The notes: a model not told the origin generated them from the letters alone. A stretch of DNA of 64,000 nucleotides from Stegostoma tigrinum (GCF_030684315.1 NC_081356.1:16579197-16643196); one strand, 5' to 3'; positions 11,037 to 53,140 are shown, counted from the first letter of the stretch. Made by a program: numbers and translations.

Positions 11037-11121
11037 ATGGGCTGGATTATTTTTAAATGGCTGCTCCTGGGGATCTGTACGAACTGCTTGATTCTTTCTG
11101 ACAGAAATGTTAATATTGTGG
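11037..11121 (+). CDS. lrp13: lrp13 exon 1: signal peptide
   Basis: aaaATGG Kozak context; MGWIIFKWLLLGICTNCLILSDRNVNIV hydrophobic leader; donor G|GTAAGT, phase 1. Confidence 0.8.
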
Positions 11122-11351
11122 GTAAGTTGCTAAAGTTGAGCTAATGAGATCGTCAATTCCTCGGCATTGAAGGTAATTGACTTTAGTGTATGTTGGTGAG
11201 GTTTTTAAAACCTGGGTGTGTTTTAATGTAACCTAACTTCTCTTGCGCTCGCAATGAGATTTCAGTAGTTGTGTGGTTGAATGGCGCTTCGCTGTGTGAG
11301 CGCGCACGTTATCCTTGTGGTTTCCTCGCTGACTCTCGGCTTGGCCTGCAG

Positions 11352-11465
11352 ATGGGGATCGGTGCCGACTATTTTGGCAGACACCCTGTGGAGATGGCTG
11401 TGCCCCAGTGTCTTGGCTGTGTGATGGAGATGATGATTGTCCTGGTGGTGTAGACGAACAATGCG
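11352..11465 (+). CDS. lrp13: lrp13 exon 2: LDLa 1
   Basis: ctgcag acceptor; DGDRCRLFWQTPCGDGCAPVSWLCDGDDDCPGGVDEQC; donor gtgag. Confidence 0.92.
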
Positions 11466-12224
11466 GTGAGATCACTTGCTGTTCTGTAAACGTATAACTG
11501 GGAGGGTGGGAGAGGTTCATAACGGAGATGAACCCCTGTCCCATCAATTTCATGAGGTTGTTTAAACAACTCGGTATGACCTGTTTGAAGCTGATGGGAC
11601 TTTGACCTGGGATTGTTTGGTCCAGAGGTAGTCACAGCAGTGTGACACTTTACTAGAAAAGTGTTTAGGATCACATCAAGAGGAAGGATGTGATTGGTGA
11701 AGCAAGCAACAGCCAGTATAGAAGTATGGAAGGGTGTGGGTTGAATGAAGCTGAGTAAAACTAAGGCAGACACAATAATTAGCTAACAACCTCATGTTGC
11801 TGGTGAGGCCCATTTATCTCAACTAGCTTGCTGGTACTACTATGGGCAATTAATCAATTGCTGCTGGAGACTTGAGTGACATGTCAGATGCTTTATGTTG
11901 AAGCTGGTGCTATTCATCCTGAGGGTTTTACTAAATCCAGCAGTAATTACACAATTTGTAATGCTAGTTTTTTGTACTTTGTCTGTTTTATTAATGGAAT
12001 GTCAACTTCCCAATGACTAGATTGCTTTGAATTTTTGAACCTTGATCACCAGCCTAAGTATTCTTATCTTCCTTCCCTCCTCTTTCCCCCCCCCCCCCCC
12101 CCCAACACTTCAGCATGTGCTGAAGTACTATTGCCAGTGGACTTTTAGCTTTACTGAAACATTTCTCGCTCTCGTGGGAATTGCTTTTGGACGCAGACCT
12201 GCAACTTTCTCAGAGCAAGGGAAG

Positions 12225-12486
12225 GTTAGATTTCCTACAGTGTGGAAACAGGCCCTCTGGCCCAACAAGTCCACATTACCCCTTGGAGCATCTTCTCTTC
12301 CCCACACCCCTGAACTCTATGGGCAATTTAGCATGGCCGATCCACCTAACCTGCACATCTTTGGACTGTGGGAGGAAACTGGAGCACCTGGAGGAAACCC
12401 ATGCAGACAGGGGGAGAACGTGCAAACTCCTCGCAGACAGTTTCCCCAGGCCCCTGGTGCTGTGTGGCTGCAGTGCTAGCCACTGT
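12225..12486 (-). mobile_element. HE1-like V-SINE (host of the Penelope insertion; its 5' end resumes at 14008-14020)
   Basis: cctaacctgcacatctttggactgtgggaggaaactggagcacc is the reverse V-domain; CR1-like tail at the left end. Confidence 0.85.
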
Positions 12487-14007
12487 AATAAAATGTGAGG
12501 CTGGACGAACACAGCAGGGCCCAGCAGCATCTCAGGAGCACAAAAGCTGATGTTTCGGGCCTAGACCCTTCATCAGAGAGGGGCAGATGGGGTGAGGGTT
12601 CTGGAATAAAGAGGGGGAGGTGGAGAGGAGGGGATAGGTCAGCCCAGGGAAGACAGATAGGTCAAGGAGGTGGGATGAGGTTAGTAGGGAGATGGAGGTG
12701 TGGCTTGGGGTGGGAGGAAGGGATGGGTGAGAGGAAGAACAGGTTAAGGAGGCAGACAGGTTGGACTAGTTTTGGGATGCAGTGGGAAGAGCTGGGCTGG
12801 TTTTGGGATGCGGTGGGGGAAGGGGAGATTTTGAAGCTGGTGAAGTCCACATTGATACCATTGGGCTGCAGGGTTCCCAAGCGGAACAAGTTCTGCTCCT
12901 GCAACCTTCAGCTGGCATCATTGTGGCACTGCAGGAGGCCCATGATGGACATGCCATCTAAAGAATGGGAGGAGGAGTGGAAATGGCTTGCGACTGGGAG
13001 GTGCAGTTGTTTATTGCAAACTGAGCGGAGGTGTTCTGCAAAGCAGTCCCCAAGCCTCCACTTGGTTTCCCCAATGTAGAGGAAGCCACACCAGGTACAG
13101 TGGATGCAGTATACCACATTGGCAGATATGCAGGTGAACCTCTGCTTAATGTGGAAAGTCATCTTGGGGCCTGGGATAGGAGTGTGGGGGCAAGTGTAGC
13201 ATTTCCTGCAGTTGCAGGGAAAGGTGGTGGGGTTGGAGGGCAGTGTGGAGTGAACAAGGGAGTCATGGAGAGTGAGAGAGCGTTACAAGCTGGTTGCCTG
13301 TGATGGAGACTGAGAGGTCCAGGAAGGTGAGGGATGTGCTGGAGATGGCCCAGGTGAACTGAAGGTTGGGGTGGAAAGTGTTGAAGTGGATGAACTGTTC
13401 TTGCTCCTCTAGGGAGCAAGAGGCGGTGATGATACGTTCATCAATGTAACGGAGGAAGAGGTGGGGTTTGGGGCCTGTGTAGGTGCAGAAGAGGGACTGC
13501 TCCACGTAACCTACAAAGAGGCAGGCATAGCTGGGGCCCATGCAGGTGCCCATGGCCACCCCTTAGTCTGTAGGAAGTAGGAGGAATTGAAAGAAGTTGA
13601 GGGTGAGGACGAGTTTGGCTAGGCAGATGAGGGTGTCGGTGGAGGGGGACTAGTCGGGCCTGTGGGACAGGAAGAAGCAGAGGGCCTTGAGGCCATCTGC
13701 ATGTGGAATGCAGGTGTATAGGGACTGGACGTCCATGGTGAAAACGAGGTGTGGGGGGGGGGGGGGCACCAGGGAATTGGAGGGCGTGGGTGCTGTCATG
13801 GACATAGGTGGGGAGTTCCTGGACCAAAGGGGAGAAAATGGAGTCCAGATAGGTGGAGATGAGTTCGGTGGGGCAGGAGCAGGCTGAGATGATGGTCGAC
13901 CAGGGCAGGCAGGTTTGTGGATTTTGGGAAGGAGATAGAAACGGGCCATGCGGGGTTGGGGAACAATGAGGTTGGAGGCTGTGGGTGGGAGGTCCCCTGA
14001 GGTGATG
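12487..14007 (-). mobile_element. 5'-truncated, frameshifted Penelope-like retroelement (RT plus GIY-YIG plus hammerhead-bearing 3' repeat)
   Basis: - strand ORF pieces FYLLPKIHKP, FTMDVQSLYTCIPH, AMGTCMGPSYACLF, FLRYIDE, NVVYCIHC..CGFLYIGETK..L..EH; 10-bp TSD tagccactgt at 12477-12486 and 14008-14017. Confidence 0.93.
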
Positions 14008-14384
14008 TAGCCACTGTGCCTGGTGAGCTTAGCTGCTGGAGCCAGTGTACTTAAAATTCACTTCTACAAGCAATAAATTGCAGATCATGTGCCAAGTAAC
14101 AGATTAGGATTTAGTTTGGTTGTCAACAGCATGTGGCCTAATTATATAAAACAAAAAAATTCCAAATGGAACACATGGGAGTAGAGCTTCCACTTTTGCC
14201 AACTATGAAATCATTGAATATGCTGTCCTAGTCATTTCAAATGAGCCAGTGCTGCATTAAGGCTTGTAATTAGCTTACTGCCCCCATGCAATGTGACTTG
14301 TTTGTTTCAATAATTGCCATAGCTACATGCAAAGTGAGGTATAAAAAATTACAATGTATTAATCAAATTGCCTGTTTCAACTGG

Positions 14385-14660
14385 CAATTTGGCCCAACAG
14401 GTCCACACTGACCTGCTGAAGAGCATCCCACCCAGACTGATCCCTGTAACCCTGCATTTCCCATGGCTAATGCATCTAACCTGACACCCCTGAACACTAA
14501 GCAATTTAGCTTAGCCAATCCACCCAACTGTCCCATTTGAGCTGGGAGGAAGCCAGAGACCCCTGCGAAATGTTGAGAACATGTGAACTCAAGTCACCTG
14601 AGGCTGGAATTGATCCTGGATCCCTGGCACTGAGGCAGCAATACTACATGCTGGACCATT
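14385..14660 (-). mobile_element. Degenerate HE1-like SINE
   Basis: ggcccaacaggtccacactgacc...gcaatttagcttagccaatccacc...gaggctggaattgatcctgg; similar to 12225-12486. Confidence 0.7.
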
Positions 14661-15026
14661 TGCTCTTGAGCAGCCTGGGTCTGATTTCTACAAAGGCTCA
14701 AATTGTATTGTAGTAGTGACAATTTGAAATCAAAGTAATCAAACTTCAGGTAGAAGATGGTAAAGACTGCAAATCCTGGAAGTCATCCACTAAAATGTAG
14801 AGCTGGAGAAGCACAGTAGGTCAGCCAGTATTGGAGCAGGACAGTTAATGTTTCAGGTCTGGGCCCTCTTTCAGCTCCAAAAAGAAAGTGCTTTTAAATT
14901 AAAGCAGCCAGAATTTGGTTTTAAACAATTTCTACAAATATTAAAGCAAATGGCTGTGCTATTCAGCCTGTTATGAATGTGTAGTCGTCAGTGGAGACTA
15001 ACTTGTGGAATTTGCATCTATCCTAG

Positions 15027-15260
15027 GGTATGCAAGATGTGATGAAAAGAGAATTTGGTGTAATGGTATTTTCTGCCTTGATGAGAGGAATGTGTGTGAT
15101 GGAAAAACAGACTGTGCTGATGGTTCAGATGAAATTAACTGCCCAAACAAAACCTGCCTTGGAATGCAATGGCAATGCAGGAACCAAAAATGCATCCCTA
15201 CAATTGCCAAGTGCAATGGTGTTGATGAATGTGGGGACAACTCTGACGAGGAATTCTGTG
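15027..15260 (+). CDS. lrp13: lrp13 exon 3: LDLa 2-3
   Basis: YARCDEKRIWC...CDGKTDCADGSDEINC...CNGVDECGDNSDEEFC; AG/GTGAG; 234 nt, phase 1-1. Confidence 0.93.
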
Positions 15261-16297: not shown

Positions 16298-16417
16298 AAG
16301 CTAAACACAAAGAAACCTGTTCAGAATACAAATGCAGTAACAAATGCTTACCTGAGAATAAGATTTGTGATGGAATATCAGACTGCATTGATGGGATTGA
16401 TGAACCGGAATCTTGTG
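16298..16417 (+). CDS. lrp13: lrp13 exon 4: LDLa 4
   Basis: TCSEYKCSNKCLPENKICDGISDCIDGIDEPESC; tttgcag/gtaag. Confidence 0.92.
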
Positions 16418-16890: not shown

Positions 16891-17007
16891 GTAAGAAGTG
16901 TTGGGACAATGGTGGAGGCTGCAGTATGTTGTGTGAAGAAACTATTTGGGGTGTGCACTGTTTTTGCCCAGCAGGCATGATTTTACAAGCTGACAAAAAC
17001 TGTTCCA
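16891..17007 (+). CDS. lrp13: lrp13 exon 5: EGF
   Basis: KKCWDNGGGCSMLCEETIWGVHCFCPAGMILQADKNCS; cttcttag/gtaag. Confidence 0.9.
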
Positions 17008-17109
17008 GTAAGAAACTAACAATTAACTTTTTAATTATCTACTGATTTAGTTTCTCTGAACTTGTTTAGACTTGTTACATGCAGCAAAATTGTCATGTTT
17101 TAACAATAC

Positions 17110-17260
17110 ACTACCACAGATACTAAAGATCTGAAGGAACTCAACAGATCCAGCAGCATCTATAGAGAAAGCTGAATTAATACCTCAATGCAAGATGTTA
17201 ACTGCTTTCTCTTCAGATGTTGCCTGATCTGAAAAGTTCCTCCAGAAACTTCTTCATGCA
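17110..17260. mobile_element. Old palindromic Penelope-terminus derivative
   Basis: ggaactcaacagatccagcagcatct ... agatgttgcctgatctgaaaagttcc form inverted arms resembling family 1. Confidence 0.5.
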
Positions 17261-18739
17261 GTAGTTTCTTCATCTTAAAAGGCACTTTCCCATGTCTTCC
17301 TTCCACTATGATTTGGAAAAAATCTTGGCTAAGGCTGAAATTTTAAATGTGTAGTTTTAGTACTCAAATTGAATAATGCAAACATTGCTCCAACAAATCT
17401 ATGCAGTTCCTTGGGAAAATAATGGAGGAAGCTGTACCTAAAATCTCAACTTAAATCTTGAATAAATGTTTTCTCATCTACAGGATCTAGATACTGACTA
17501 GACTAATACATATTGTCTATCCCTAATTGTTACCAATGATGGTGAGATGCTTTCTTGAACTACTGCAGTCCATGGTGTGTAGGCATACCTACCTGTTGGG
17601 AGAATACTAGGATTTTTGACCCAGTGACAGTAAGGAAGAGTTCCAAATCAAGATTACAACACCAGGAGGGGAACCTTGATGGTGATCCCACACTGTATTT
17701 CCCCCTGTGACTCAGGAAGTCACTAAATTAGCTGCTTTGGAGGCAACTCAAGTTACTGCAATGCACAAGGTAGATGAACTCCAGTTCCATATACTGGATA
17801 GGGAAATAAGCGAAGGCATCAGAAGGTGCCAGTTAAGCAGACTACTTTGGGCTCTCCAGTCAAACTGCTTGAATGTTGGAGGTGCAGCCCACAAGGGAGA
17901 TGGAATATGACCATCTTTCTCCTGACTATATTACAGATGGTAAGTGGGCTTTGAGAAGTCAGGTGAGGTTACTCATGGTGGAATGTCAGTCTCTGGCATG
18001 CTCTTAACCACACCAACATAGCTAATCATTTTGTTTCTGGACAAATGTAGTCCCCAGGTTGTTGACCACAAGGGATTATGGAAATGCCATAGTGTTGAGG
18101 AACAATTTGATGATCCTCTTTGGTAAACATGGCACACTACTTGCCACATGAACCAATGCCTTGATAAGTGTTGATCTGACTCCACTAATGTTATCACCTG
18201 CAAAATTCATACCTTGCTCCTACTTAGGTTCTTGTTTTGTGTTCTCCACTCCCTCCCCAGCTGACACTTTTAAGTTTTTTATTAATTTTAAGTATTTAAA
18301 TTTTGCAACACTTTCTTTTAATTCAATGAAGCTTCAATTTACAATCTCAATGCCTCTTTCCAGACTGGGGTATGTTACACATCTCTCCTCTTGCTGGAGG
18401 CAATTAGTAAATTCCTGTTTAGTGTCTGCTTGCATTCTCCACACTTCATGCCTGAGTAAATATTTACCTACCCAGTATATCTGCACAATGTCTCAAGTCA
18501 AGTCATTAATAAAGCTTTGTTTTTGATTGTACTGACTTGGCACAAGCCTTGCCAAGCATATATGCCAATCCCACCTTGCTGCTTGTTTCAGCTGCAGTAG
18601 CTAGCACCCTGCATGTAACATTTAATCTTGCTCTGGAAGTTGCTCAGCAATTAGTGTACTAAAATGTCAGCATGCTAACAAGCTTTATGTAAATCATGTG
18701 AACCTCAAGAGAAGCACCTGAGTCAGATGTACAGCAGGC

Positions 18740-19300
18740 AGACACCTTTTTAATCCAACTCATCCAGGCTGGCCAGATATCCTAAACAGGTCTAGTCCAA
18801 TTTGGCCCATATCCTTCTAAACCCGTCCTATTCATCTACCCATTCAGATGTGCCTTTTTAAATGCTGTAACTGTACTGGGCTTCTCCTCACTTCTGGTAA
18901 TTCATTCCATACACATGCCACCCATGTGGGGTGGGGGGAATCTTATTAGTGTTTAAACTTTTTTCCTCATTTAAACTTCTGTTCTCTAGTTTGGATACTT
19001 CCCCCTCACTGGGGAAAAGGCTGCCTATATTTACCCTACCCATGTCCCTCACACTTCAAATGCCTGTTACCCTCTGACACTTCAAAAAATAGGCCCAGCC
19101 TATTAGCCTTCCCACCATTTCCCAGCTTCACCCCCCCCCCCACCCCACAAAACCTAGCAAAATTTTTATTTCCCTTCCCAACCCTCCAAGTTTCAAACCT
19201 GCTTCCTATAGCAGAGATCCCAAGAATTGCAAGCAGTATTTCAAAAAAGGCCTATATAGCCACGATCTCCAACTCCTTCACTCTGCACTGAACAAAAAGC
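18740..19300 (-). mobile_element. CR1 LINE 3' fragment
   Basis: tttggcccatatccttctaaacccgtcctattcat... is typical of a reverse CR1 3' end; similar text at 49480-49980. Confidence 0.6.
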
Positions 19301-19745
19301 AAGCTGTCTCTTGGACACTGCACTTCAGCTATAATTTTGAGCTGACTGTGTTTGTGGCTGTAAAAGGCTTATTGTAATAAGGCACTGAAGAACAAGCTGT
19401 CTGGGATTATGTGGGTACCAACATGTAATAGTCTTATAACAAGAAAATACAAGTTCTGATCTTTAATTATTAGTTTCATTCTCTAATCCAAGTGAAGAAT
19501 TTAAAATTGAATTTTAGTAGCTACACTATTTTCTCACCACTTGGTGAAAACATTTAACTCAGCTGTTGGACTTAATTGCTCAATGTCAAGTATCAATTCT
19601 TCAACTTAACTGCATGTCTTCAGAAAATGCTTGTATGATGTGCATAATCAATTCAGTTTGTATGCAATGGTCATTGCTCTTTCAAATAGCTGTGCAAGCA
19701 ACAGGTGTCCATCCCAGATGACTGACACCTTTTTTCCTTTTGCAG

Positions 19746-19949
19746 AAGGCACTACCTTCTTGGTGACAGCTGGACAGCGCAGTCTAGGGATACTGGATTT
19801 AAACAGCAGGAAGTACACATCAATGGTGGTTAACAAGGAAGTTGTGGCTGTTGCTAATGATCTAGCAAAGGCTGCTTTTTACTGGGTTGATGTTGAAGGG
19901 AATATATTTTGGTCACTAGCCAAAAATGCCAGCACTCCAATTTACAGAG
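19746..19949 (+). CDS. lrp13: lrp13 exon 6: beta-propeller 1 start
   Basis: GTTFLVTAGQRSL...AAFYWVDVEGNIF; tttgcag/gtaat. Confidence 0.88.
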
Positions 19950-24443: not shown

Positions 24444-24609
24444 ATAAAGGAGTGACTAGTATTGCTACTGACTGGTTCACTGGGCTGATTTACTGGACCA
24501 ACCTCTTTGAGGAGAGAATTTGTGCTGGCATGTCTAATGGCAATGGATTTACAACCATCCTAGAGAAGAACATAAGACCAGAGCAGCTGCTCCTCCTACC
24601 AGCAAAAAG
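24444..24609 (+). CDS. lrp13: lrp13 exon 7: YWTD repeats
   Basis: KGVTSIATDWFTGLIYWTN...RPEQLLLLPAK; phase 1-2. Confidence 0.92.
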
Positions 24610-26074
24610 GTAAGTTTCTTGTAACTAAGATGCTGCTGATACATAATTAAGACTCCTAGTCTCACACACCTTCTTTACACTATTCATGATTAGCAATTGT
24701 GTAACAGGTCTTGCTAGATAACACGTATACTACCATGGAGACCAGTCCTTAAAGGGGAACATTTGCATATTCCCTGGTCAGCTGTTGGAAGTCTCTTCCA
24801 ACTGTCAAGGCCAAAATTTTTTACTAGAGGCTAAAGAGATCAAGATACCAGGAGAAAGCAAGATAGAATATTGGAATCATGGAGGTAACATTTGATCTAC
24901 ACCTAAAATGGGCCAAAAAACTACCAAATCTATAATAGTCCCACTTTCCAGCAGTGCCTAAGGCCTTGCACAACATCTAAGCAGATGTCTAAAAATTTAA
25001 GGCTTTTCCCACCTCCAATGTCTATAGTGCATTCCAGATTCTCCCACAGAACCTTCCCCCTAATCTCTGGCTTTCATTTTTCTCCAACAGCTCTTTTTTT
25101 CCTATTCCACTAAAAGGAGCAGTTGCTTTCAATTTACTCTAACCTTGCCCATCTGTCTTCTAGACATCCTTCCTTCTGATGGTCTCCACACCCACTGGTC
25201 TACTCCTTGTTTCAAGCAGTGAATTGTAGCATAGGATTTAATGCTTTGCGCACACGATTGTAGATGTTCACTGGTGTTTAAAATGACCTTGTAGAAATTA
25301 GATTTCCCACCCCCCCAGGATATTTAAATGGACTTTAACAGTTTTATTCCTCCTTGCTGAGCTCAAATTTAGCAAGGAAAATACTTCCTCTTCACCATGC
25401 CATGATAACCAAGTATGTACTAACATGAAATGAACCACATTTTCAGACAGTAGTTTGAATATGCATCGTAAGTCACTAGTTCTATCCTCTACAGCAACGT
25501 AAAACTTAAAAGGAAAAAACAAAACTATTGCAAACCAAACCACTTGCATGACTATTTAAATTCCTCCAAGATTTGGAAGAGCAAAAGCCAAACCAGCTTG
25601 AGGTTCATGATTCTAAATGAAGCAAATGATTGCTGGCAGAATCCAAATCTCAATTGTGGTGTGTACTTTTAGTGCCTCCTCCAGGCTCCTGGGTGAGCCA
25701 AACACTTCATGCAAACTTAGCCAGTAAAATTGCATGTTCTAACGTCCTTTCACCTCTACTCTTAACTCTATTTTCTTGGAAATTAGTATTTGAGTGAGTA
25801 ACTGTTCCATTCTCCAACTAGAGGGTCTGAGCTTACTTCAATGTTGGGACAATGTTTCTAATCAACTTGTGAATCTAAGGCCCACTCAATTGAGCAAAGG
25901 AGTTGAGTTTCAGTCTACTTGTTTCCAGTTATTGCATTATCAACTTTGCATTGGGGAGTGTCCTCTCAAGTGGGCATATAGCAGGAACTAAATTGGCTTT
26001 AATGGAGTATTATTGCATTAATCAACTGAATCTGTTCAGCTGCAAAGGATCATGAATGCAACAATCTTTTTCAG

Positions 26075-26249
26075 TTACATCTTCTGGGTAAACCAAAGAG
26101 ATGACATCTACTCCAACATTCGCATTGAGACTGCAGGAATGGATGGTTCTAGAAGAAAAGTCATTGTGGTTCTTGATTCATTGAAACCAATTGGATTCTC
26201 ACTTGATTATCCCTATGAGAGACTCTACTGGTTCAATGAAGATTACAAA
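26075..26249 (+). CDS. lrp13: lrp13 exon 8: YWTD repeats
   Basis: YIFWVN...IETAGMDGSRRKV...DYPYERLYWFNEDYK; phase 2-0. Confidence 0.93.
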
Positions 26250-26624
26250 GTAAGTGCATCTGGCCTGCTGGAATGTCTTAACTGGACATACTTTAATTCC
26301 CCTCATGAAGCTGTTTTTAAATGTTCCAGTCTGAAAGACTGTCCATACTGGACAAATGGCTACTAGTGGCTAACTTGATTAGCAGCAAAGTAGTGTCTAG
26401 TTGACACAAACATCATTCTCAACTGAAACTAATCTTTAGTGTTCAATGTTTTCAAGTATGTAGGATTCCCTACCATTTTATCACTGAGTCTTGGGGATGA
26501 GGAAGGAAAGTGTCTGACTAATGTTCCCTTATAGATTTAAGGTGAACCAATTTGGCTGAAACTTGCTGTAAAAGCTTTGCTCTTTTTAGCACAGAGGCTG
26601 ACTAACTTTGAGCTTTTTTCCAAG

Positions 26625-26841
26625 TCTGTTGAATCCATCAATGTGGATGGCACTGGGAGGTTATCAATTTCCAACTTGGACATCACAAAACCTCAAGGAT
26701 TTTCAGTATCTGACGGTTGGTTCTACTGGTCTGAAGCAAATAAAGTTTTCCGTATATCCCACCATCTGAGAAGGCCAAAGGAGGTCTTGATAGATCCTGC
26801 AGTAGCTTTCACTTTGACCATAACCAACCAGCAGCAAAAAA
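26625..26841 (+). CDS. lrp13: lrp13 exon 9: end of propeller 1
   Basis: SVESINVDGTGR...PQGFSVSDGWFYWSE...NQQQK; phase 0-1. Confidence 0.88.
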
Positions 26842-26929
26842 GTAAGTCCTGTTTTGCTCATATTTGCAAACAAACCATGAGCAATGGATGTTTCTAATCA
26901 ACCTGTTACTGTTAACAATTGACTTGCAG

Positions 26930-27049
26930 GTAGTCATCCATGTCAGAAAGCAGAATGCAGCCATATATGTTTGCTGTCTCCATTGAAAATTAAAGGCTAC
27001 AAATGTGCTTGTCCTCAAGGAATGTACCTAGTATCTGGAAAATGTGAAG
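26930..27049 (+). CDS. lrp13: lrp13 exon 10: EGF
   Basis: [39 protein letters not shown]; phase 1-1. Confidence 0.92.
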
Positions 27050-30000
27050 GTAGGTTAGCTTATATGCAATAGCACATGGCACTACTTGTTGCAGTGATTT
27101 GGATTTGTCTTGTCCCCCATTGACTAAACCAAATAGCTACTGTCACTTCAATGGCATGCAAGTAACTTGTGCCAGATTTAACAAAAGAAATTTCTCCAAG
27201 TAGCCCTAGAGACCTTATCTTTGTCAAGGGGCAGTTACCAGTGATTCTTCTTGCCAGTAGCCACAAGCTACCAGGTTATTTGGCAGGCAGGTTAAAAGGT
27301 CCCATTGCTATAAAACTTCATTCTAATGGCTGGTTGTCTTTGTTCTTTAAATTCCCATTTCTACATAGGTGTAGAACTAGAAGTAAGCCACTTGCCTTTG
27401 TCTGCTACATCATTGTAAATGATGGCATTGTTGATCTTCCAACCCACCCCCATAAGTTGCTTTTAAAGTTAACTTTTCACATTGAGAAGTTGAGCCTGTA
27501 CTCATCCTTTCAATTGCCCCATAATTGGGATCAACCAATAAACTGCCTCAATGTAGCTTTCCTTGAGGGGTAAAGACTGTTCACACTTCTAGGTACAACA
27601 ACTAGTATGTTATATAGTTTAATAAAACATCTTGCACTTTCTAATTGAGCCCATATTCAACTTGCCTCCATAATTATGGGCCAGTTACTGCCTCCAGCTA
27701 GCTTTCTCTGCAAAGCAATAGGTGTTGCCAACACCTATTGAGCAAAACCTGCCTAATCCACACCAGTTGGGTTCTGCCAAGGCCACTCAGCTCTTGGTCT
27801 TGTTTTCAGCTGAATCCCTTTTTAAGCCAAGAGTTGAATTCCAGAAGGGTGATTGCTGTTGACATCAGTGCCACATCTGACAGTCTGGCATCAAAGATTC
27901 CTGGAAAAACTGAATCAGTGGGATTTGGTAGGAGGTTTGGGAATGGAATCTTGCTTGCTTTCCCTGATCTTTACCCAATTTCTAATTTGTCTAACATTAG
28001 AACCTCATCCAAGGCTTCACTGAAATCTAAGTAGCTAAAGCTTGCTGCTCTGTCCTCCAATATTCTAGCTACATCCCAAACTCAAATCGAGTTAGTGTGA
28101 CCAGGATTCTTCCATGTACAAAGCCATGCTGACTATCCCTAATCACTCCTTACCTCTCCAAATAAATGTAAATCTCTCAATCCCTTGCACACATGGTGTG
28201 AAAATTTGCACCTATGGTAGCTTTTCAACCTGTGCAGAAAAACTCCTCCCACTATCTGTAGCTTTTCTGTAGTCTTGGACCACTTTAAATACTACTTGGC
28301 TCCTCCTCCTTTCTGCCAGTACATAACCTCATTTTCCACACTTTATCTGAAGCTTTTACCCCTCACTTGCAGACTGTCTGTCAACCAGCTTTCTCACCTT
28401 GTGTCATGTGACAACTTAGCTGTATTATGCTTTCTTTCCTCCCCACCCCCTCCAAAAAAGACCACAAAACAATTGTCCCCAACACTTTCCTAATAGTACT
28501 AGAGTGAAGGCCTCATCTTGAATACCACCTTATTCTAACTTTTTGGCCAATCTACTCTATCCCTATACTACAATATTGTAACTACTCTACAAATTTAAAA
28601 AAGCAACATTTTTGTATGCAGTACCTCTATCAAATGCCTTTTTTAGAAATCTTAATTTCCCAAATCTGGTTCCCTTTCTCCCACTTGTTACTATAAGCCT
28701 ATTTCAACTACCTCAAAGCCATGTTGGCTCTACATGATCCATGTTAGTTCATCCTTTATGGATTCTAACTTCATTCCTAGTGACTAAAGTTTGCACATCC
28801 TCACCCTCTGTTCCCTGCTGCTGTGACACCCCAACTTCTCATTGCTTGAATGCAACCCAATATAGTTGGAAGTGATTGGGGAGGGGAGGAAATCCAATTT
28901 CCTATAACCCAAAAGTTCAAACCCTTAAGTTTTTTGTTTTGAATCTGACTGAAGTATTAAACTGTTTATCCCTGAGTAAACACTGAAATTAGCTGGTTGG
29001 GCAATTAAGCAGTAATAGCTCCATCCTGATGTGTAAAGGAAAGTTAAGTGAGCTTTTTTCTCTGCAATGTTTCCCCTTTAAAAGGTAGTGTGGATAGATG
29101 GACATATGGGTGTAAATGGTGCACGTTTTTACATGCAAAAGGCATCATTGACAATGGTCCACTACTCCAGAGGTGCTACAAACAAATTCCTGTGTCAAAA
29201 ACCTGACATTCTTCCATGATAAATAGCTTCATTGTTGAGATGGTTATGGAGTGATCAGTGCAGGTTTATGATCTAGACCAGCCCACAGCCTTAAGCATAT
29301 GCCCAAAAAATTAGGTCAGAATTCTGGAATTGGGTGGCAACCCAGTCTGTTGCAACTCTACCTCCCACCTGTAAACAATATTGCTGAAAGACTAACTTTT
29401 GTACCTTAATTACAATTCTGTTCTTTCGAAAACTTTAAGATGTCAAGACTCAGATCTTGCACTTGACACATCAAGCCTTTCAATCAAATAGGTATAGATT
29501 TGGCCAGAGTTCTGACTTTTGAAATGGTGGTGATTGAGGAGTCTTCAAACAAAAGTGCAAATCTTCCTGTCATAGCCTCTAAGCTATTGTAGTTTTGGGT
29601 GGCTTTTCAAAAAGCTGATTTTCTCTTTGCCTTCTCTTGTATTTTGTTCTCAACACTTCTGGGAGAAGTGTTTTAAAATAACCTGTTTGGGACAGATCGT
29701 CAAATGTGACACTCAACCCATTTGGACACTTGTTGGTCCAGGCACTAAATTCAAAGTACATTTTCCTATGAAACACTTCCCTACATGTTCCTCTTAACTA
29801 CAATTTCAATTAAAGTATGGATTTTGGCTAAACTTCTAAAGGAATGTGCACTTGCTTTTCTAGTTTAAAGGTGATTTGGAGTCATGTGGAATAACAATCC
29901 AAGAACCTTGCCAAGAAAGGTTGGGAAGTCTAGCCATAAGCGGAATTGTTTTTATAGAAACAGATGGCAGGGGCAGTCTCGTGTTTGGGGGGGGGGGGGG

Positions 30001-30621: not shown

Positions 30622-30735
30622 GCAACCGGTCTATGTGCACAATTAACAATGGAGGCTGTTTGGAGAGGGATACATGTATCCAGCACACTAATGGAGTTCA
30701 CTGCCTTTGTCCAGATGGTGAGGATTGTTCTCCAG
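30622..30735 (+). CDS. lrp13: lrp13 exon 11: EGF-like
   Basis: NRSMCTINNGGCLERDTCIQHTNGVHCLCPDGEDCSP; ttgtag/gtaac; 114 nt, phase 1-1. Confidence 0.82.
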
Positions 30736-33175: not shown

Positions 33176-33399
33176 GTACTTAACACTGCTTTTGCAAAGC
33201 TTGTTTTTAGGAGCTAAAGATTGGATATAGAAACAGCAAGTTTGTACTTGCAATCTAGTCTACTGCAGCAACTGTCTACAATCCAGCCCTCCCCACATGT
33301 GGGGAGGCCAAGTGTTTAGTGACCACTTTCCAGGTCAACTTGGTACAAGCATGACCCTATCATCCTGATTTTCATGCTTGTACTACTGTCTAGGTCCAG

Positions 33400-34944: not shown

Positions 34945-35160
34945 ATGCATTTCATTGTTCAGATGGGACCAAATGTATTCAGGGAGAGCTGCGTTGTGAT
35001 GGCATTGAGCAATGTCCAGATGGATCTGATGAAACTACCTGCAGCCAAGAAACCGATAGCTGTGGTTTCTGGTGTGATGATCACCAGAGATGTATTCCTT
35101 CAGACTGGATATGTGATGGCAGCAAAGACTGTACAGACAAAACTGATGAATTTAACTGTG
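34945..35160 (+). CDS. lrp13: lrp13 exon 13: LDLa 6-7
   Basis: AFHCSDGTKCIQGELRCDGIEQCPDGSDETTC...CIPSDWICDGSKDCTDKTDEFNC. Confidence 0.93.
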
Positions 35161-37012: not shown

Positions 37013-37239
37013 GTTGTAGCAGTGATGACTTCATCTGCAACGATGGCCAGTGTATTTCTCTCGCTTTCCGCTGTGATTCAAAATATGACTGCAAGGATCA
37101 CTCAGATGAGCACAACTGTCCAAAACAGAAACATCTTTGCAAACCTGATGAGGTGATGTGCCCTGCCAGTAAGGAATGCATAATAAAGGAGTGGTGGTGT
37201 GATGATGATGTCGACTGTGAAGATGGGACAGATGAACAG
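37013..37239 (+). CDS. lrp13: lrp13 exon 14: LDLa 8-9
   Basis: [35 protein letters not shown]...[17 protein letters not shown]; phase 1-0. Confidence 0.93.
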
Positions 37240-38181: not shown

Positions 38182-38311
38182 AACTGCAAGCTTTCAAAAG
38201 TTAAGTGTGGTGAATTTCAATGGACATGTGGTGACTACTCCCAGTGTATTCCAGACTTCTGGCAGTGTGATGGACAGAGAGATTGTAAAGATGGCAGTGA
38301 TGAAGTTAAGT
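38182..38311 (+). CDS. lrp13: lrp13 exon 15: LDLa 10
   Basis: [43 protein letters not shown]; phase 0-1. Confidence 0.93.
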
Positions 38312-38404: not shown

Positions 38405-38583
38405 GCCAACCAAGACCCTGCACTAGCTCTGAATTTCAATGTGCTTCATTGATGTGCATCAACATGAGCTTGGTCTGTAATGGAAGGGATGACTGCACAG
38501 ATGGCTCTGATGAAGGAGGTGACTGTGGTGTTCAGGATTGCAAAGACTGCATGCATGTATGTTATAAGACACCAGATGGACCT
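38405..38583 (+). CDS. lrp13: lrp13 exon 16: LDLa 11 plus start of EGF-A
   Basis: [37 protein letters not shown]...[12 protein letters not shown]; phase 1-0. Confidence 0.92.
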
Positions 38584-39765: not shown

Positions 39766-39952
39766 AAATGTGGCTGTGAGACTGGGTTCAAGTTCATGGC
39801 TGACTTGCGTACTTGTATTGATGTTGATGAGTGCAAAGAACTGCCAACCAGACCATGTAGTCAAATATGTCTTAACATGAATGGAACCTACAGCTGCAGT
39901 TGTCATGCTGGGTTCCTGCTCACCAATGATGGATACAGTTGTAAGGTGACAG
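39766..39952 (+). CDS. lrp13: lrp13 exon 17: end of EGF-A plus calcium-binding EGF-B
   Basis: KCGCETGF...TCIDVDECKELPTRPCSQICLNMNGTYSCSCHAGFLLTNDGYSCKVT. Confidence 0.94.
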
Positions 39953-42208: not shown

Positions 42209-42424
42209 GTGCTGAGCCAGTTCTCCTTGTAACCATTCACCATGATATTTTGCTATATGGACTGCACAGTGCAAAAAAAGACTTTGTGCCTGAACTTGCC
42301 AAAAGTGCCATATTTTCCATGGATTATGACTGGAAAGAAAAAATAATCTTCTGGGTTGATACATACTCTGAAAGCATAAAGTGGATGAAGCTGTATCAAC
42401 AAGAGAAAGGAACACTAATCAAAG
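42209..42424 (+). CDS. lrp13: lrp13 exon 18: propeller start
   Basis: AEPVLLVTIHHDILLYGL...FSMDYDWKEKIIFWVD. Confidence 0.92.
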
Positions 42425-43862: not shown

Positions 43863-44046
43863 AAATACATTCTGATTGCGTAGCTGTGGACTGGGTAGGC
43901 CGAAACATTTATTGGACTGATGGAGTTGCTAGCTGTATTCTGGCAGCCAGGTTGAACATGGCACTGAATGGACCCCAAGAATATACCATTGTAGTTGATA
44001 CAGATATTGACCAACCCCATTCTTTGGTTCTGCAGCCACTTAATGG
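43863..44046 (+). CDS. lrp13: lrp13 exon 19: YWTD repeats
   Basis: CVAVDWVGRNIYWTDG...DIDQPHSLVLQPLN; phase 1-2. Confidence 0.93.
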
Positions 44047-44374: not shown

Positions 44375-44576
44375 GCTAATGTACTGGGCTGAGATTGGAA
44401 GCAAACCACACATTGAGAGAGCAGGAATGGATGGAACCAACAGAAAGCTCCTAATCAAAAGTAGACTAGGTTGGCCAACTAGTCTGACAATTGATCCCCT
44501 TGGCAGGAAACTACTTTGGGCTGATGGTCAACTGCATTGCATTGGTATGGCCAATTTAGATGGCACAAATATAAAG
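44375..44576 (+). CDS. lrp13: lrp13 exon 20: YWTD repeats
   Basis: LMYWAEIGSKPHIERAGMDGTNRK...GWPTSLTIDPLGRKLLWADG; phase 2-0. Confidence 0.94.
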
Positions 44577-44651: not shown

Positions 44652-44813
44652 CTTTTCCAGCTGACTCATACTCGTAGACCATTTGCTGTAGCTTTATTTG
44701 AAGATGAAATCTTCTGGTCTGACATGGAACTGAGAACTGTTCAGAAAGTTGACAGACTAGGAAAGAGCAGGACTGTCCTCTTGAAACGTGACGTTCAACC
44801 ACATGGATTGAAG
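44652..44813 (+). CDS. lrp13: lrp13 exon 21: YWTD repeat
   Basis: LFQLTHTRRPFAVALFEDEIFWSD...QPHGLK; a second in-frame acceptor lies 9 nt downstream (start 44661). Confidence 0.88.
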
Positions 44814-44895: not shown

Positions 44896-45096
44896 GTAAT
44901 GCATGAGATTCTGCAGCCGCAAGCATATAACCCTTGTGAAGAAATGGGCTGCAAACACTTCTGCTTACTTGGCCCTGGACTGAAAGGGAGTTGTCATTGT
45001 GAGCCAGGCATGTTGCTGGCTGATGATGGGCTGACTTGCTTGAAATCTGAAGACAAACCTTTTCTCCTCATGATTTCTCCTACTGTCCTCCTTCAG
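44896..45096 (+). CDS. lrp13: lrp13 exon 22: EGF plus start of next propeller
   Basis: VMHEILQPQAYNPCEEMGCKHFCLLGPGLKGSCHCEPGMLLADDGLTC...PFLLMISPTVLLQ. Confidence 0.93.
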
Positions 45097-46807: not shown

Positions 46808-47342
46808 GTATACTTAAAACACCTACAACCGGATACAGGGTTAAAGGCTTTGCCAGAGCACCTAGCATACCAACTAATTAACAATCAAGTGGCCTCAGCA
46901 GATTATGTCTGGAAAGACAAATTAGTCTATTTTTCTGACTCTGAAGAAGGCATTGTTGGAAGTGTTATGCTGGGGTCAAATTCATCCTCTGTGCAAAAGA
47001 TTTTCCAGGTTAATGACATCATGTCACTGAAAGTGGACTGGTTGAGTGGTAACCTTTACTGGATCACCAGGACCCCCAATGTAATTGAAGTAGCATCTGT
47101 AAATGGTGCTTACAGACTTGTCCTGATTGACAATCTCTACCATTCAAATTCACTTTCATTACACCCACCTGATGGTATCATGTGCTTTTCTGAGTGGGGT
47201 TCAGAAGACCAAAAAGTTGGCCCAAGAATTCAATGTTCCCAAATGGATGGACAGAAAAGAAAAGTACTCTGGAAAAAGTGTCGCCTCCCTACAAGCCTGC
47301 TCCTTGCAGAATCTGGTACTCGGCTTTATTGGATTGATTTAG
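46808..47342 (+). CDS. lrp13: lrp13 exon 23: last propeller (535 nt)
   Basis: VYLKHLQ...DYVWKDKLVYFSD...VDWLSGNLYWI...RLYWIDL; phase 0-1. Confidence 0.94.
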
Positions 47343-47844: not shown

Positions 47845-47970
47845 GTCACAATGTTATTGACAGTGTTCTCCTGGATGGTTCAGAATTTAGAGAAATTCAA
47901 GCAGGCCTTGAAGCACAGTCTGTCTTTGCATATGGTGAGGACATTCTCTTCTGGACAACTATACATGATG
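47845..47970 (+). CDS. lrp13: lrp13 exon 24
   Basis: HNVIDSVLLDGSEFREIQAGLEAQSVFAYGEDILFWTTIHD. Confidence 0.9.
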
Positions 47971-48040
47971 GTAAGTTACACTTCAAATATTTACTAATGC
48001 AGCCTATGATCTGTATCATGACTGTAACTTTATTTGATAG

Positions 48041-48148
48041 GTTATACAAGGATGTGGTACAGCATGATGGGACAGAAAAAGCAACAATGGTTTGAAGTAC
48101 AGCAGAAAATTGTTGGTCTGAAAGTGTACAGCAGACAGCAGCAACAAG
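48041..48148 (+). CDS. lrp13: lrp13 exon 25: end of propeller
   Basis: YTRMWYSMMGQKKQQWFEVQQKIVGLKVYSRQQQQ; follows a 70-nt intron. Confidence 0.85.
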
Positions 48149-48803: not shown

Positions 48804-49037
48804 GGTACAACTTCTGTTCTGAGAAGAATGGTGGTTGTGATCACCTGTGCCTAGCATACCCAAGAGGAAGATCATGTAGATGTTCAGTGGGATATCTGAT
48901 CATCAATGGCAGCAAGTGTGAAGCCATGGAGTGCCCACCTGAGACTTGGCAGTGCCATGATCAATTGAGCTGCATCTTAAATGAACAAGTGTGTGATGAC
49001 AAAAGGCATTGTGCTGATGGATCTGACGAAATGGAGT
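48804..49037 (+). CDS. lrp13: lrp13 exon 26: EGF plus the solitary '+1' LDLa
   Basis: YNFCSEKNGGCDHLCLAYPRGRSCRCSVGY...CPPETWQCHDQLSCILNEQVCDDKRHCADGSDEME. Confidence 0.94.
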
Positions 49038-50967: not shown

Positions 50968-51451
50968 GTTTGTGAACCCAATTAAGGACACCATTCAGAT
51001 ATTAGTTGAATAGTAAGCAATTGTCATTTGACCAGATTAAATTAACCTCTTCTCACTTGCAAGAGCTGGGTTTAAAAATGGATTTTGGCTGAAACTCATT
51101 CCATATTGCCCCAGATTGGTTGGGTATTGGCTCATTTTAACCAATTTAGCTGCTTCTTGAACAAACTCTTGCATATTCCAAATTGAACTAAAGGTAAATT
51201 GTTGCTGTTAAAAGGTAAATTGTTACACAGACCAGTGTAGTGAGCAAGATACCAATAAATAAAGTTTGACTGAAATATTCCTCTTTTAAACCACTAGTGG
51301 TTTAAAAACCAAACTTCAGTAACTTATCGGTCATCCTTAGCAGAGATCCACAGCAGAAAATGATCTGTATGCCAGGTAATTACTTTATTACATGTTTAAA
51401 CTGCATGCTAATTAGTATCAAAATGCAATTTCTCTTTCTTTCCTGATGCAG

Positions 51452-51533
51452 GAGAGCTAGAACCAACATGCAACAGACTACAGGCCATGGGAATCAGACC
51501 TTCAGGAATGAGGCTTTTGTAGAAGTACCAGAG
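51452..51533 (+). CDS. lrp13: lrp13 exon 28: cytoplasmic tail
   Basis: Strong pyrimidine tract and gcag acceptor; RARTNMQQTTGHGNQTFRNEAFVEVPE; phase 2-0, donor gag|gtgat. Confidence 0.72.
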
Positions 51534-51599
51534 GTGATGCTAAAATATTTGTTTCAAATTTATGCACGATTTTGTCTATGTAGGTGGCCGGAGTTGTTG

Positions 51600-52520
51600 T
51601 TGGTTGTAGACTGACAAACCAAGATTAGGGCAGATGTCGACAAGGAGAACTCAGGATACAGCAGGATGGGCTAAACTTGAGCAGAAAAATGGCAGTTAAT
51701 TTCATAGTGAAATTTAGTGCATTTTAGAAGGCCTCTTCTTAGAAGGAAGTGTGCAGTAAAGTTGTTTGTTAGCTAGGGAGACTAGGACCCATGGGCACAG
51801 CCTTAAAATTTGAGGTGGGGGGGGGGGGGGGGGTAAATTTAAAACTGAAATGAAAGCATCCATCAATTTTAATATCTTGATCTTACAAGGAATCAAGGGC
51901 TATCGGAGTGCAGGGAAGTGGAGTTGAAATGCCCATCAGCCATGATTTAAATAGTGGAGTGGACTTACTTCCCTGCCATTGTCTTATGGTCTAACACTCA
52001 ACCTCCAGAAGGGGCTGTACATACAGCCCCACAGTTTCCTGAAGGAGATGAGTGTGGCCAAGAGCAAAGTATGCTTGCCTTCATTGGTCAGGTATAGTGT
52101 AGAACTATGTAGGCCACACTTGGAATACTGTACAGTTCATGGCTCCACTAACAAGTGTGTGGAGGCTTTGGGAGGATACAAAAGGCTTACTAGCATGTTG
52201 CCTGGTTTAGAGGGTATAGCTGAGATTGGACAAAACTGGTGTATTTTCACTTATGTTAATTGAGGTGCTCTGCCAATTGAGGCATGAGTCTTTGTGCCTG
52301 ACCCCACTACCCAGAACATCCAGCACTAGGAGACTACCTTCAACTGCACTCCTGCATATTAAGATAATGAGTGGCTAGAAGGCACTGCCAGAGGACATGG
52401 AGGCAGATACAATAGCAACATTTTAAGAGTTGCCATATTCAATTATGAATAGGCAAGGAGCAGAAGGGTTAGACTATGGCAAAAGTTGAGACATAGCTCA
52501 ACAGTCTTTGGGCCACTGGG
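51600..52520 (+). mobile_element. CR1 LINE 3' fragments
   Basis: aggacccatgggcacagccttaaaatt, RPHLEYC motif, aagggctatcggagtgcagggaagtggagttga. Confidence 0.6.
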
Positions 52521-53119
52521 CTTTTTGTGCAATATTTATCCTGATTCTTTCTCCTATCCCATCAGCCATCAAATGGGAGTCAGAGCATTGTGCCAAGCAG
52601 TCTGTCCATGTGACCAATTACTGACCAGGGTCCTCCACAGTTCACCCACCAATAGGCATTAGGTTAGGGTGTATTTGGGGCATTGCAGCTAGAAAACAGC
52701 ATACAATCAAAGCCCAGGGAAGGAAAGGCTGCCTCAAGATAGAGGCTGCCACTGGGATTACAGCATGTCCCATTCTCTTAGTGATGAACTATAGACCACC
52801 CCTCAGGAAATGGTTGATATCTCACCACAAGGGCTGACAGTTCTAGTATAACTTGAAGCTGTCCAAAGATTAGCAAGATGTCAGTCAACTGGCTTTGCAG
52901 TCCCTTCCTGATTTGGAGAAACATGATTTGGTTATACCGAGGGGGCACTTTTTGATTTTAAAATGAACTATAGCTTTCAGTCCTCCAATAGGAAAAGCTG
53001 ACTGCCCTGAAGTAGTATGAGTGCAGAGGCTGAGTTATCACTTTGCCACAATTTTTGTACAATATCAACTGACACTTGTCAAGATTTCAAAGCACTAACT
53101 CTACTTTTTTCTTTTGCAG

Positions 53120-53140
53120 ATACCACAGACAAGCAATTGA
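53120..53140 (+). CDS. lrp13: lrp13 probable terminal exon (IPQTSN*)
   Basis: Acceptor tttttcttttgcag; TGA at 53138-53140; AATAAA 47 nt later. The frame depends on the exon 28 donor. Confidence 0.6.
   Translation: MPQTSN

Follow-up and report, generated by a model that had tools for sequence, protein, structure and literature searches.

A 64,000-nt stretch of DNA from the zebra shark (Stegostoma tigrinum), which we call the window, contains a gene of 29 exons at 11037–53140 (see the table). When the exons are joined by their coordinates, they give a single open frame of 1,778 amino acids. All 28 introns are GT-AG, the only stop in the joined frame is the terminal one, and the start (ATG at 11037) and end (TGA ending at 53140) agree with the initial annotation, which was made by reading the sequence. 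We refined that gene model by setting the acceptor of exon 21 to 44652, which matches the RefSeq and whale-shark models. The product has, in order, a signal peptide, four LDLa repeats (cluster I), an EGF domain, a propeller, two EGF domains, seven LDLa repeats (cluster II), two propellers, one LDLa repeat, a stalk, an EGF domain, and a transmembrane helix. The initial annotation had claimed that a module with a signal peptide, four LDLa repeats, an EGF domain, a propeller, and two EGF domains precedes the seven-repeat cluster in frame, and our GT-AG exons, Pfam matches, profile search, and structural model confirm this. Its 4+7+1 arrangement of LDLa repeats is also correct, as a pattern count finds 12 LDLa cores in that arrangement.

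Features of the zebra-shark gene (positions count from the first nucleotide of the window)
Feature	Position	Strand	Basis or remark
CpG-rich region, likely promoter	10501..11500	+	around exon 1; CpG obs/exp 0.73-0.74
Exon 1, signal peptide (aa 1-28)	11037..11121	+	ends in phase 1
Exons 2-4, cluster I, 4 LDLa	11352-11465, 15027-15260, 16298-16417	+	Pfam PF00057
Intron 2, position of extra LDLa in sevengill shark, missing here	11466..15026	+	alignment gap
Exon 5, EGF	16891..17007	+	PF14670, E 6e-8
Intron 5, position of relatives' second EGF, missing here	17008..19745	+	alignment, tblastn
Exons 6-9, propeller 1	19746-19949, 24444-24609, 26075-26249, 26625-26841	+	profile, model, fold match
Intron 9, 88 nt, RefSeq split point	26842..26929	+	
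Exons 10-11, two EGFs	26930-27049, 30622-30735	+	Pfam
Intron 10, place of missing propeller 2	27050-30621	+	
Exons 12-16, cluster II, 7 LDLa, start of EGF	33005-33175, 34945-35160, 37013-37239, 38182-38311, 38405-38583	+	Pfam
Exons 17-22, EGF, calcium-binding EGF, propeller 3, EGF	39766-39952, 42209-42424, 43863-44046, 44375-44576, 44652-44813, 44896-45096	+	Pfam
Exons 23-25, propeller 4	46808-47342, 47845-47970, 48041-48148	+	profile
Exon 26, EGF and single membrane-proximal LDLa ("+1")	48804..49037	+	PF14670, PF00057 E 4.2e-6
Exon 27, Ser/Thr-rich stalk, EGF, transmembrane helix	50478..50967	+	
Exons 28-29, short cytoplasmic tail, stop codon	51452-51533, 53120-53140	+	
AATAAA, likely polyadenylation signal	53187..53192	+	

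Pfam was run on 24 of the 29 exons, one exon at a time. It found LDLa repeats (PF00057) in exons 2, 3 (two), 4, 12, 13 (two), 14 (two), 15, 16, and 26, with exon 2 scoring slightly below the curated cut-off, and EGF-type domains in exons 5, 10, 11, 17, 22, 26, and 27. The product matches a zebra-shark RefSeq model at about 99%, and its C-terminus is identical to that model's. It is also 92.1% identical to whale shark XP_048451324.1 (1,782 columns, 4 gaps), so the domain layout is not due to chance; both proteins have 129 cysteines. A catshark model with the same layout is 73% identical from end to end. The two 500-nt bins around exon 1 have the highest CpG ratios in the window (median 0.06). 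We found no tandem repeats in 11000–54000. Nor could any neighbor gene in the 64-kb window be named (in teleosts the conserved neighbors are rchy1, smad2, tia1, and upb1): two flanking frames had no Pfam match, and the ESM Atlas was uninformative for the upstream exon.

Exons 6–9 have no Pfam match when taken one by one, but together they score 258 bits across 254 positions of a propeller-1 profile that we built. (Propellers 3 and 4 score 401 and 347 bits against their profiles.) In the AlphaFold model of the N-terminal RefSeq protein, this domain has block pLDDT values of mostly 80–95, and it superposes on the propellers of LDLR and LRP6 across about 260 columns, at 2.3–2.9 Å for most chains. 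The model and the superposition indicate that propeller 1 is complete. The N-terminus encoded by exon 1 is shared with the whale shark, the sevengill shark, and rays, and exons 2–4 are most similar to cluster I of the sevengill shark, newt, mouse, and salmon.

Compared to the fuller form of the protein in other vertebrates, which is described below, the window's gene lacks one LDLa repeat, one EGF domain, and propeller 2. In intron 2, tblastn with the extra LDLa repeat recovers only the other repeats. In the DNA of this window, neither tblastn (best E 0.88, in intron 10) nor a profile search found a remnant of propeller 2, and the same methods found no hidden or decayed exons for the second LDLa repeat or the second EGF. 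With propeller 2 gone from intron 10, the EGF domains of exons 10 and 11 are adjacent. The evidence for these losses is this assembly and five other shark models. We also considered that the N-terminal module (exons 1–11) might be decaying in the zebra shark. It evolves faster than the rest of the protein, with 32 zebra-lineage changes in 527 positions versus 34 in 1,026 (Fisher p 0.016). However, the ratio of zebra-shark to whale-shark changes is alike in both halves (32:17 vs 34:16, p 0.83), so we rejected decay that is specific to the zebra shark. The aromatic residue that precedes the fourth cysteine of an LDLa repeat usually contacts the ligand; it is present in 1 of 4 repeats in cluster I versus 5 of 7 in cluster II.

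The gene is an Lrp13 orthologue, as the initial annotation had supposed: phylogeny places its propellers within the Lrp13 clade and not outside of it. In a quick tree, propellers 1, 3, and 4 lie in clades with newt and mouse proteins (SH-aLRT 99–100). The clades for propellers 3 and 4 (SH-aLRT 100) include eel XP_035291565.1, gar si:dkey-88l16.3, newt KAJ1204826.1, turtle, and mouse, and stand apart from LRP1/1B/4/5 and LDLR. The eel and gar proteins have been named as Lrp13 (PMC9935665, PMC12480657). The window's protein also has the Lrp13 traits of a single LDLa repeat near the membrane (exon 26) and of a main LDLa cluster that is followed by EGF domains and two propellers. Its tail has an FxNxxF motif and no NPxY. 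LRP1, LRP1B, and LRP2 contain the same modules, are the source of misleading RefSeq names, and (for LRP2) give the best matches among solved structures. But they have four clusters, about eight propellers, and about 4,500 amino acids, LRP1 and LRP2 have NPxY tails, and their clades are separate from Lrp13. The ESM Atlas returned only generic LDLR-family clusters for the catshark protein. VLDLR and VLDLRc proteins, with 8 or 6–7 LDLa repeats per unit, one propeller for each unit, and an NPxY tail, do not match either.

Cloned teleost Lrp13 (or LRX+1) proteins are orthologous to the window's protein and share cluster II, two propellers, and the single membrane-proximal LDLa repeat; for instance, eel XP_035291565.1 is 41% identical across 1,230 columns. 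These proteins have one cluster of 7–13 repeats (7+1 in white perch and eel, 10+1 in amberjack, and 13+1 in cutthroat trout; PMC9935665), while the window's protein has 4+7 in two clusters, with cluster I, an EGF domain, propeller 1, and two EGF domains as additional parts. So the statement in the initial annotation that teleost Lrp13 has one N-terminal cluster and a single repeat holds for cloned cDNAs, but not for many genome models (salmon, herring, dragonet, remora, and croaker), which include the N-terminal module. These long models and the cloned Lrp13 of perch, trout, and zebrafish may be different paralogues.

The fuller form, with about 2,100 amino acids and four propellers, is found in sevengill shark, lungfish, newt, turtle, birds, salmon, and mouse, although most of the relatives that we compared are computer gene models rather than cDNAs. 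The mouse protein (Gm19410; 2,098 amino acids) is curated by RefSeq, and the newt has a transcriptome contig (6,680 nt) with the complete coding sequence of an lrp13 of 2,136 amino acids (PMC11772764 Table S1). The long proteins from lungfish, newt, turtle, chicken, and mouse were already filed as lrp13 in that 2025 supplement. They resemble the window's protein in having two LDLa clusters, propellers 1, 3, and 4, the "+1" repeat, and an FxNxxY/F tail motif. They differ in having five cluster I repeats (some degenerate), a second EGF domain, propeller 2, and about 2,100 instead of 1,778 amino acids. Because our LDLa pattern misses degenerate repeats, a cluster I that we scored as 4 in a relative is often really 5. 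Among the 120 matches listed, propeller 2 is present in 93, propeller 1 only in 6 (all elasmobranchs), and neither in 19; the other 2 are below the cut-off. Rays and eel lack the entire N-terminal module.

The fuller layout of lungfish, newt, bird, and mouse suggests that the two-cluster layout is probably old, and partly trimmed in this shark gene, instead of being a shark invention. Thus, the initial annotation was right that the layout is ancestral, in that it predates sharks, but wrong to treat it as special to cartilaginous fish. Judging from the spread of forms, the ancestor of jawed vertebrates would have had 5 LDLa, 2 EGF, two propellers, 7 LDLa, 2 EGF, two propellers, and 1 LDLa. Galeomorph sharks would then have lost propeller 2 through an in-frame exon deletion. 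Rays and the eel would have lost the entire N-terminal module, and in rays the signal-peptide exon would have been joined to the equivalent of exon 12.

The initial annotation also linked the extra module to the very large eggs of sharks. Five galeomorph shark models contain the intact module and cloned teleost cDNAs lack it, as expected if it were gained or specifically retained by sharks for such eggs. However, the presence of the fuller form in mammals, birds, amphibians, lungfish, and salmon contradicts a gain. Furthermore, placental mammals without yolk keep the fuller form, rays lack the module, the window's own form is a deletion relative to the sevengill shark's, and the ovary-specific multiplication of ectodomains that has been reported for sharks belongs to VLDLRc2 and VLDLRc3 (PMC10015161). 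The link to giant eggs is therefore unsupported, and we consider it highly improbable. VLDLRc2 and VLDLRc3 are likewise shark receptors with several LDLa clusters each, and were proposed to serve yolk-rich oocytes, but they are shark-specific tandem repeats of the VLDLR ectodomain from another gene lineage (PMC10015161).

We predict from the gene structure that a single transcript spans all 29 exons. RefSeq instead annotates two models, of 456 and 1,264 amino acids, with the boundary at intron 9: the shorter model runs on into the intron, and the longer one begins at a methionine in exon 10. If RefSeq is correct, then a secreted N-terminal piece that ends in retained intron 9 is made alongside a separate C-terminal receptor. 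Intron 9 is short and its acceptor is poor in pyrimidines (10 of 18, the second lowest among 28), there are AATAAA sites at 27537 and 27621, and comparable splits occur in frog and wrasse, each on one contig. But the C-terminal model starts within an EGF domain and has no signal peptide, there is no CpG peak before exons 10–12 (obs/exp of at most 0.21 in bins 25001–34000), and the models for whale shark, bamboo shark, catshark, and horn shark all cross the junction of exons 9 and 10. Two products seem very unlikely to us. It is somewhat easier to imagine, though still unlikely, that the main ovarian isoform skips exons 2–11 to give a ray-like 7+1 protein, with the long form being a minor or somatic product. 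The end of exon 1 and the start of exon 12 are both in phase 1, the skipped product (1,251 amino acids) would be colinear with the sawfish protein (1,245 amino acids) from residue 1 at 64.6% identity, and the eel cDNA is 7+1 (PMC9935665). On the other hand, the N-terminal module retains every cysteine and is 89–92% identical to the whale shark's, and the newt contig encodes the long form.

We propose, with a probability of roughly 0.8, that the zebra-shark Lrp13 gene encodes one two-cluster membrane receptor of 1,778 amino acids, which is likely a trimmed version of the four-propeller layout and probably binds vitellogenin on the surface of the oocyte for uptake by endocytosis. In receptors of the LDLR family, LDLa repeats bind the ligand, the tail recruits adaptors, and propellers aid release at low pH. 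By analogy, the calcium-bound LDLa repeats would bind basic patches of vitellogenin, the FxNxxF motif would recruit endocytic adaptors, and the propellers would help to unload the cargo when the pH is low. Since cluster II is what the vitellogenin-binding short forms of fish retain, it is probably where yolk protein mainly binds; cluster I probably serves as an accessory site or takes a second ligand. Fish Lrp13 binds vitellogenin and is expressed in the ovary (PMC4651544, PMC12009396). We found no expression or binding data for shark Lrp13 in the literature.

The family does more than take up yolk, as the mouse gene has been kept in the absence of yolk and is a marker of layer-5 extratelencephalic neurons of the cortex (PMC12868666). 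Many placental mammals have full-length open frames, yet placental mammals lack vitellogenin genes (PMC10015161). So the main conserved job might be to bind another ligand, such as in neurons, with cluster II serving yolk uptake in egg-layers. This is unlikely, since expression is restricted to or biased towards the ovary in zebrafish, eel, mullet, and newt, and since 7 of 13 zebrafish knockouts had ovarian degeneration.

Yolkless-type vitellogenin receptors of protostomes (tick, mantis shrimp, stick insect, spider, centipede, and abalone) have 4–5 LDLa, two propellers, 7–8 LDLa, and a propeller, which resembles ancestral Lrp13. They do not match the window's protein itself, as their three propellers are arranged 2+1 instead of 1+2 and they lack the fourth propeller and the "+1" repeat. 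The initial annotation had called for a phylogeny that included such receptors, and their kinship with Lrp13 gains support from it. With concatenated propellers, a site-mixture model, and two long rows removed (the mantis shrimp receptor and one LRP2-type protein), Lrp13 is sister to the arthropod and mollusc receptors, apart from LRP1 and LRP2 (support 98/97, with long branches). On the same reduced alignment, AU tests rejected Lrp13+LRP2 (p 0.008) and gave p 0.038 for Lrp13+LRP1. An outgroup-rooted quick tree retains the clade (SH-aLRT 95), and cluster I size (4–5) and the role in oocytes are held in common. It is nevertheless quite possible that the likeness is convergent, with Lrp13 and those receptors being separate fast offshoots of an LRP1/LRP2-like giant that are joined by their long branches. 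The stem branch of Lrp13 has 1.5–2 changes per column, the p value for Lrp13+LRP1 is modest, single-propeller trees do not resolve the relation, and LRP1 and LRP2 start with the same cluster-propeller-propeller-cluster order. Also, among the best 150 representatives, no invertebrate protein scored like Lrp13 propeller 1. Propellers 1 and 3 pair at only 85 in the single-propeller tree, so an internal duplication is not established.

We tentatively suggest, at a little under even odds, that Lrp13 is the vertebrate orthologue of insect, crustacean, and mollusc Yolkless; that the ancestral two-cluster, four-propeller form is intact in yolkless mammals as the neuronal marker Gm19410; that the n+1 cDNAs of teleosts are derived or skip the module; that galeomorphs lack propeller 2 through a deletion that they share as a derived trait; that rays lost the whole module; and that the chicken oocyte protein LRP380 may be the same gene. 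LRP380 is likewise a large LDLR-family protein of oocytes, whose complete structure had yet to be delineated in 2012 (PMC3521959), and chicken lrp13 has a listed length of 2,417 amino acids (PMC11772764 Table S1); that they are the same is a guess.

In itself the locus is unremarkable, belonging to a known family and differing by a new set of deletions (4+7+1, with three propellers). Its value lies in comparison, and the picture of Lrp13 as one cluster plus one repeat describes a derived state. The missing module could contribute to the gap between the predicted and observed masses of Lrp13 (PMC12480657), although glycosylation is a simpler reason. The natural series of forms with four, three, and two propellers lets one ask what cluster I and propellers 1–2 do. 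If the kinship with Yolkless is true, then one receptor lineage has been involved in yolk uptake since before the split of protostomes and deuterostomes and was retained in mammals for something else, and Gm19410 gains a family and a testable function.

The extra N-terminal module described in the initial annotation is real and was read correctly: 4 + 7 + 1 LDLa repeats lie in one frame, and the first propeller is complete. LDLa, EGF, and YWTD-type exons appeared only on the plus strand, in six-frame motif scans and in the raw sequence of the window. With exon limits set by AG/GT boundaries (one acceptor was refined against homologues), 29 exons give a single frame of 1,778 amino acids (~199 kDa). 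The protein begins with a signal peptide, 4 LDLa (cluster I), EGF, propeller 1, 2 EGF, and 7 LDLa (cluster II), followed by 2 EGF, a propeller (propeller 3), EGF, a propeller (propeller 4), EGF, 1 LDLa, a Ser/Thr stalk, EGF, a transmembrane helix, and a short tail. The module runs from cluster I through the two EGFs that precede cluster II. Run on 24 of the 29 exons, Pfam recovered 12 of 12 LDLa; it had no match for exons 6–9 (propeller 1) taken singly. Propeller 1 is complete despite this silence, because it scores 258 bits against a profile from 17 long relatives, its predicted structure has high confidence (for the RefSeq N-half, modelled with an alignment of 21 sequences), and the predicted fold matches most LDLR and LRP6 propeller chains at 2.3–2.9 Å over ~260 columns.

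Features of the window, with their coordinates
Feature	Position	Strand	Remarks
56-codon frame	982–1149	minus	ATG to GT donor
Lrp13 gene, exons 1–29	11037–53140	plus	ATG to end of stop codon
Exon 5	16891–17007	plus	Left out of the RefSeq N-half model; may be alternative splicing
Exon 11	30622–30735	plus	RefSeq donor is 18 nt earlier; may be an alternative splice choice
Open frame	62944–63195	minus	In a CpG-rich bin (0.54), adjoining a short ATT repeat

The 56-codon frame, for which Pfam and the ESM Atlas gave no name, is a candidate first coding exon for a neighboring gene transcribed away from Lrp13; it may resemble paladin (PALD1). The open frame near the other end, which had no Pfam match, could be either an exon or a repeat.

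The gene is a member of a known family, Lrp13. With exon 23 as the query, we found 23 relatives among 422 candidates, with whale shark on top (96%). By cluster look-up, a zebra shark RefSeq model is 99.3% identical to the window protein from residue 509 to the end. The whole model is 92.1% identical to whale shark XP_048451324.1 (1,782 amino acids; 4 gaps) and 73.3% identical to a catshark model (1,777 amino acids). A quick tree built from 94 single propellers put the window's propellers 1, 3, and 4 in clades with SH-aLRT of 99–100. The clades for propellers 3 and 4 contain eel XP_035291565.1, which is named as an Lrp13 orthologue (PMC9935665), and gar si:dkey-88l16.3, which is lrp13 in PMC12480657; LRP1, LRP1B, LRP4, LRP5, and LDLR-type rows lie outside. 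This phylogeny bears out the proposed placement in the Lrp13 clade.

RefSeq annotates two products in zebra shark, parted at intron 9: a 456-amino-acid model that runs into this 88-nt intron, and a 1,264-amino-acid model that starts at an internal methionine in exon 10. So we also considered that the locus yields two products. However, the 1,264-amino-acid model lacks a signal peptide, and the highest CpG peak of the window is at exon 1 (0.73–0.74, versus a median of 0.06), while CpG never rises above 0.21 from 25001 to 34000. (The second- and third-ranked bins, at 0.57 and 0.54, are outside the gene.) Furthermore, models from four other sharks span the exon 9–10 junction, the complete 2,136-amino-acid lrp13 of a newt is encoded by a single 6,680-nt transcriptome contig (PMC11772764, supplementary Table S1), and the curated mouse record is 2,098 amino acids long. 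We therefore infer that exons 1–29 form one transcript.

The sawfish C-terminal region had 381 matches, and we scored the 120 listed with four propeller profiles. Propeller 2, the second propeller of the fuller relatives, was present in 93 of these 120. Six had propeller 1 without propeller 2 (whale, bamboo, cat, horn, and basking sharks, and an electric ray remnant), and 19 had neither, with 2 more below the cut-off; many of the 19 models start within the gene and look incomplete. Among the matches listed, the full form (~2,050–2,170 amino acids) occurs in sevengill shark, paddlefish, salmon, lungfish, and caecilians, and likewise in newts, frogs, turtles, squamates, birds, and many placental mammals. 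Additional searches (58 matches to propeller 1, and the best 150 of 11,425 representatives) yielded teleost models with the module from remora, croaker, snailfish, herring, and dragonet, and N-halves from sea bass, flounders, and others. Cluster II has 14–34 LDLa in ray-finned models (34 in herring and 28 in dragonet; also reedfish, wrasse, and salmon), versus 7 in elasmobranchs and lobe-finned vertebrates. In gar and bowfin models, cluster I is fused to cluster II (17–18 repeats, no propellers between), which is a possible route to single-cluster forms rich in repeats; a longer gar model (2,453 amino acids) is in Table S1 of PMC11772764.

Relative to the sevengill protein, the window gene has no propeller 2 at all and is also missing the second LDLa and second EGF; we found no remnants of these three pieces in the window's introns. 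In sawfish and devil ray, the signal peptide is joined straight to the equivalent of exon 12; skipping exons 2–11 of the window gene would leave 1,251 amino acids, colinear with the ray form. In the electric ray, cluster II follows a single LDLa and half of propeller 1, possibly a decaying remnant of the module. The simplest reading is that the ancestor had the four-propeller form, of which galeomorph sharks lost a part, and rays and eel a larger part. So the suggestion of an ancestral two-cluster layout holds in that the four-propeller form is widespread and likely old, but this layout is not confined to sharks and the window copy is likely trimmed: the gene is a new deletion variant, not a shark innovation. 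There are 129 cysteines in the window protein and 129 in that of whale shark. Change in the N module is ~1.8 times faster than in the C module, and this holds alike for the zebra and whale shark lineages, so this comparison gives no sign of decay peculiar to zebra shark.

Vitellogenin receptors from tick, mantis shrimp, and stick insect, as well as spider, centipede, and abalone proteins, have 4–5 LDLa, two propellers, 7–8 LDLa, and one propeller, a two-cluster layout described before (PMC4394447). Single-propeller trees did not resolve how these insect-type receptors relate to Lrp13. In a concatenated tree of the first three propellers (24 rows, 793 columns, two long rows dropped; the window gene, lacking propeller 2, is not among them), Lrp13 grouped with insect-type receptors, against LRP1 and LRP2, with support of 98/97. 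AU tests, on groupings picked after the tree was seen, rejected Lrp13 with LRP2 (p = 0.008) and weakly rejected Lrp13 with LRP1 (p = 0.038). When six rows assigned by layout to the LRP4 and LRP5/6 types served as outgroup, a quick tree kept the clade (SH-aLRT 95). But long-branch attraction may be behind the grouping, given the great length of the Lrp13 stem.

Receptors of the LDLR family grip basic patches of their ligands through calcium-bound LDLa repeats, in which an aromatic residue usually makes contact, and are internalized. By analogy, shark Lrp13 would do the same with its ligand. Cluster II is likely the main ligand site, because it is common to all forms and is richer in aromatic contact residues than cluster I. 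The cytoplasmic tail has no NPxY; its FxNxxF/Y motif, common from sharks to mouse, probably serves endocytosis. Fish Lrp13 binds vitellogenin Aa (PMC4651544). Zebrafish lrp13 is ovary-specific and co-precipitates with vitellogenin 1; at 28 °C, the ovaries were degenerate in 7 of 13 knockouts (PMC12009396); newt lrp13 has ovary-biased expression (PMC11772764). Nothing in the present evidence ties the module to egg size, and the proposed link to very large shark eggs is unsupported: the fuller form persists in mammals that have no vitellogenin, and the module is missing from rays. The ovary-specific ectodomain multiplication reported in sharks is that of VLDLRc2 and VLDLRc3 (PMC10015161, whose main text has no word beginning LRP). 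A sawfish protein of 2,141 amino acids, with units of 8, 6, and 7 LDLa and one propeller each, fits the three-unit VLDLRc2; its contig is equal in length to the one that carries sawfish Lrp13. The mouse orthologue, Gm19410, is full length with both clusters; it marks layer-5 extratelencephalic neurons (PMC12868666) and is on a brain gene panel (bioRxiv 2025.06.20.660790). No primate protein was among the matches listed for exon 23, the sawfish C-terminal region, or propeller 1.

Chicken, mouse, and dog orthologues were reportedly described by Reading et al. 2014. The long layout or the link to Yolkless, the insect-type receptor, may already be stated there, in Mushirobira 2015, or in Andersen 2017. 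In the literature searched, which excluded most subscription papers, we found no paper that treats a shark Lrp13 or the two-cluster layout, or that links Gm19410 with Lrp13 in its main text. Table S1 of PMC11772764 gives lrp13 lengths for lungfish (2,155 amino acids), newts (2,136), turtle (2,060), chicken (2,417), mouse (2,104), and gar (2,453); three accessions are shared with our matches and lungfish agrees by length, and the accessible text does not discuss two clusters. The accessible portions of PMC1933434, PMC7579821, PMC7303178, and PMC8834532 have nothing on layout, and chicken LRP380 had no full structure as of 2012 (PMC3521959). The interest of the zebra shark gene is the family history to which this variant points.
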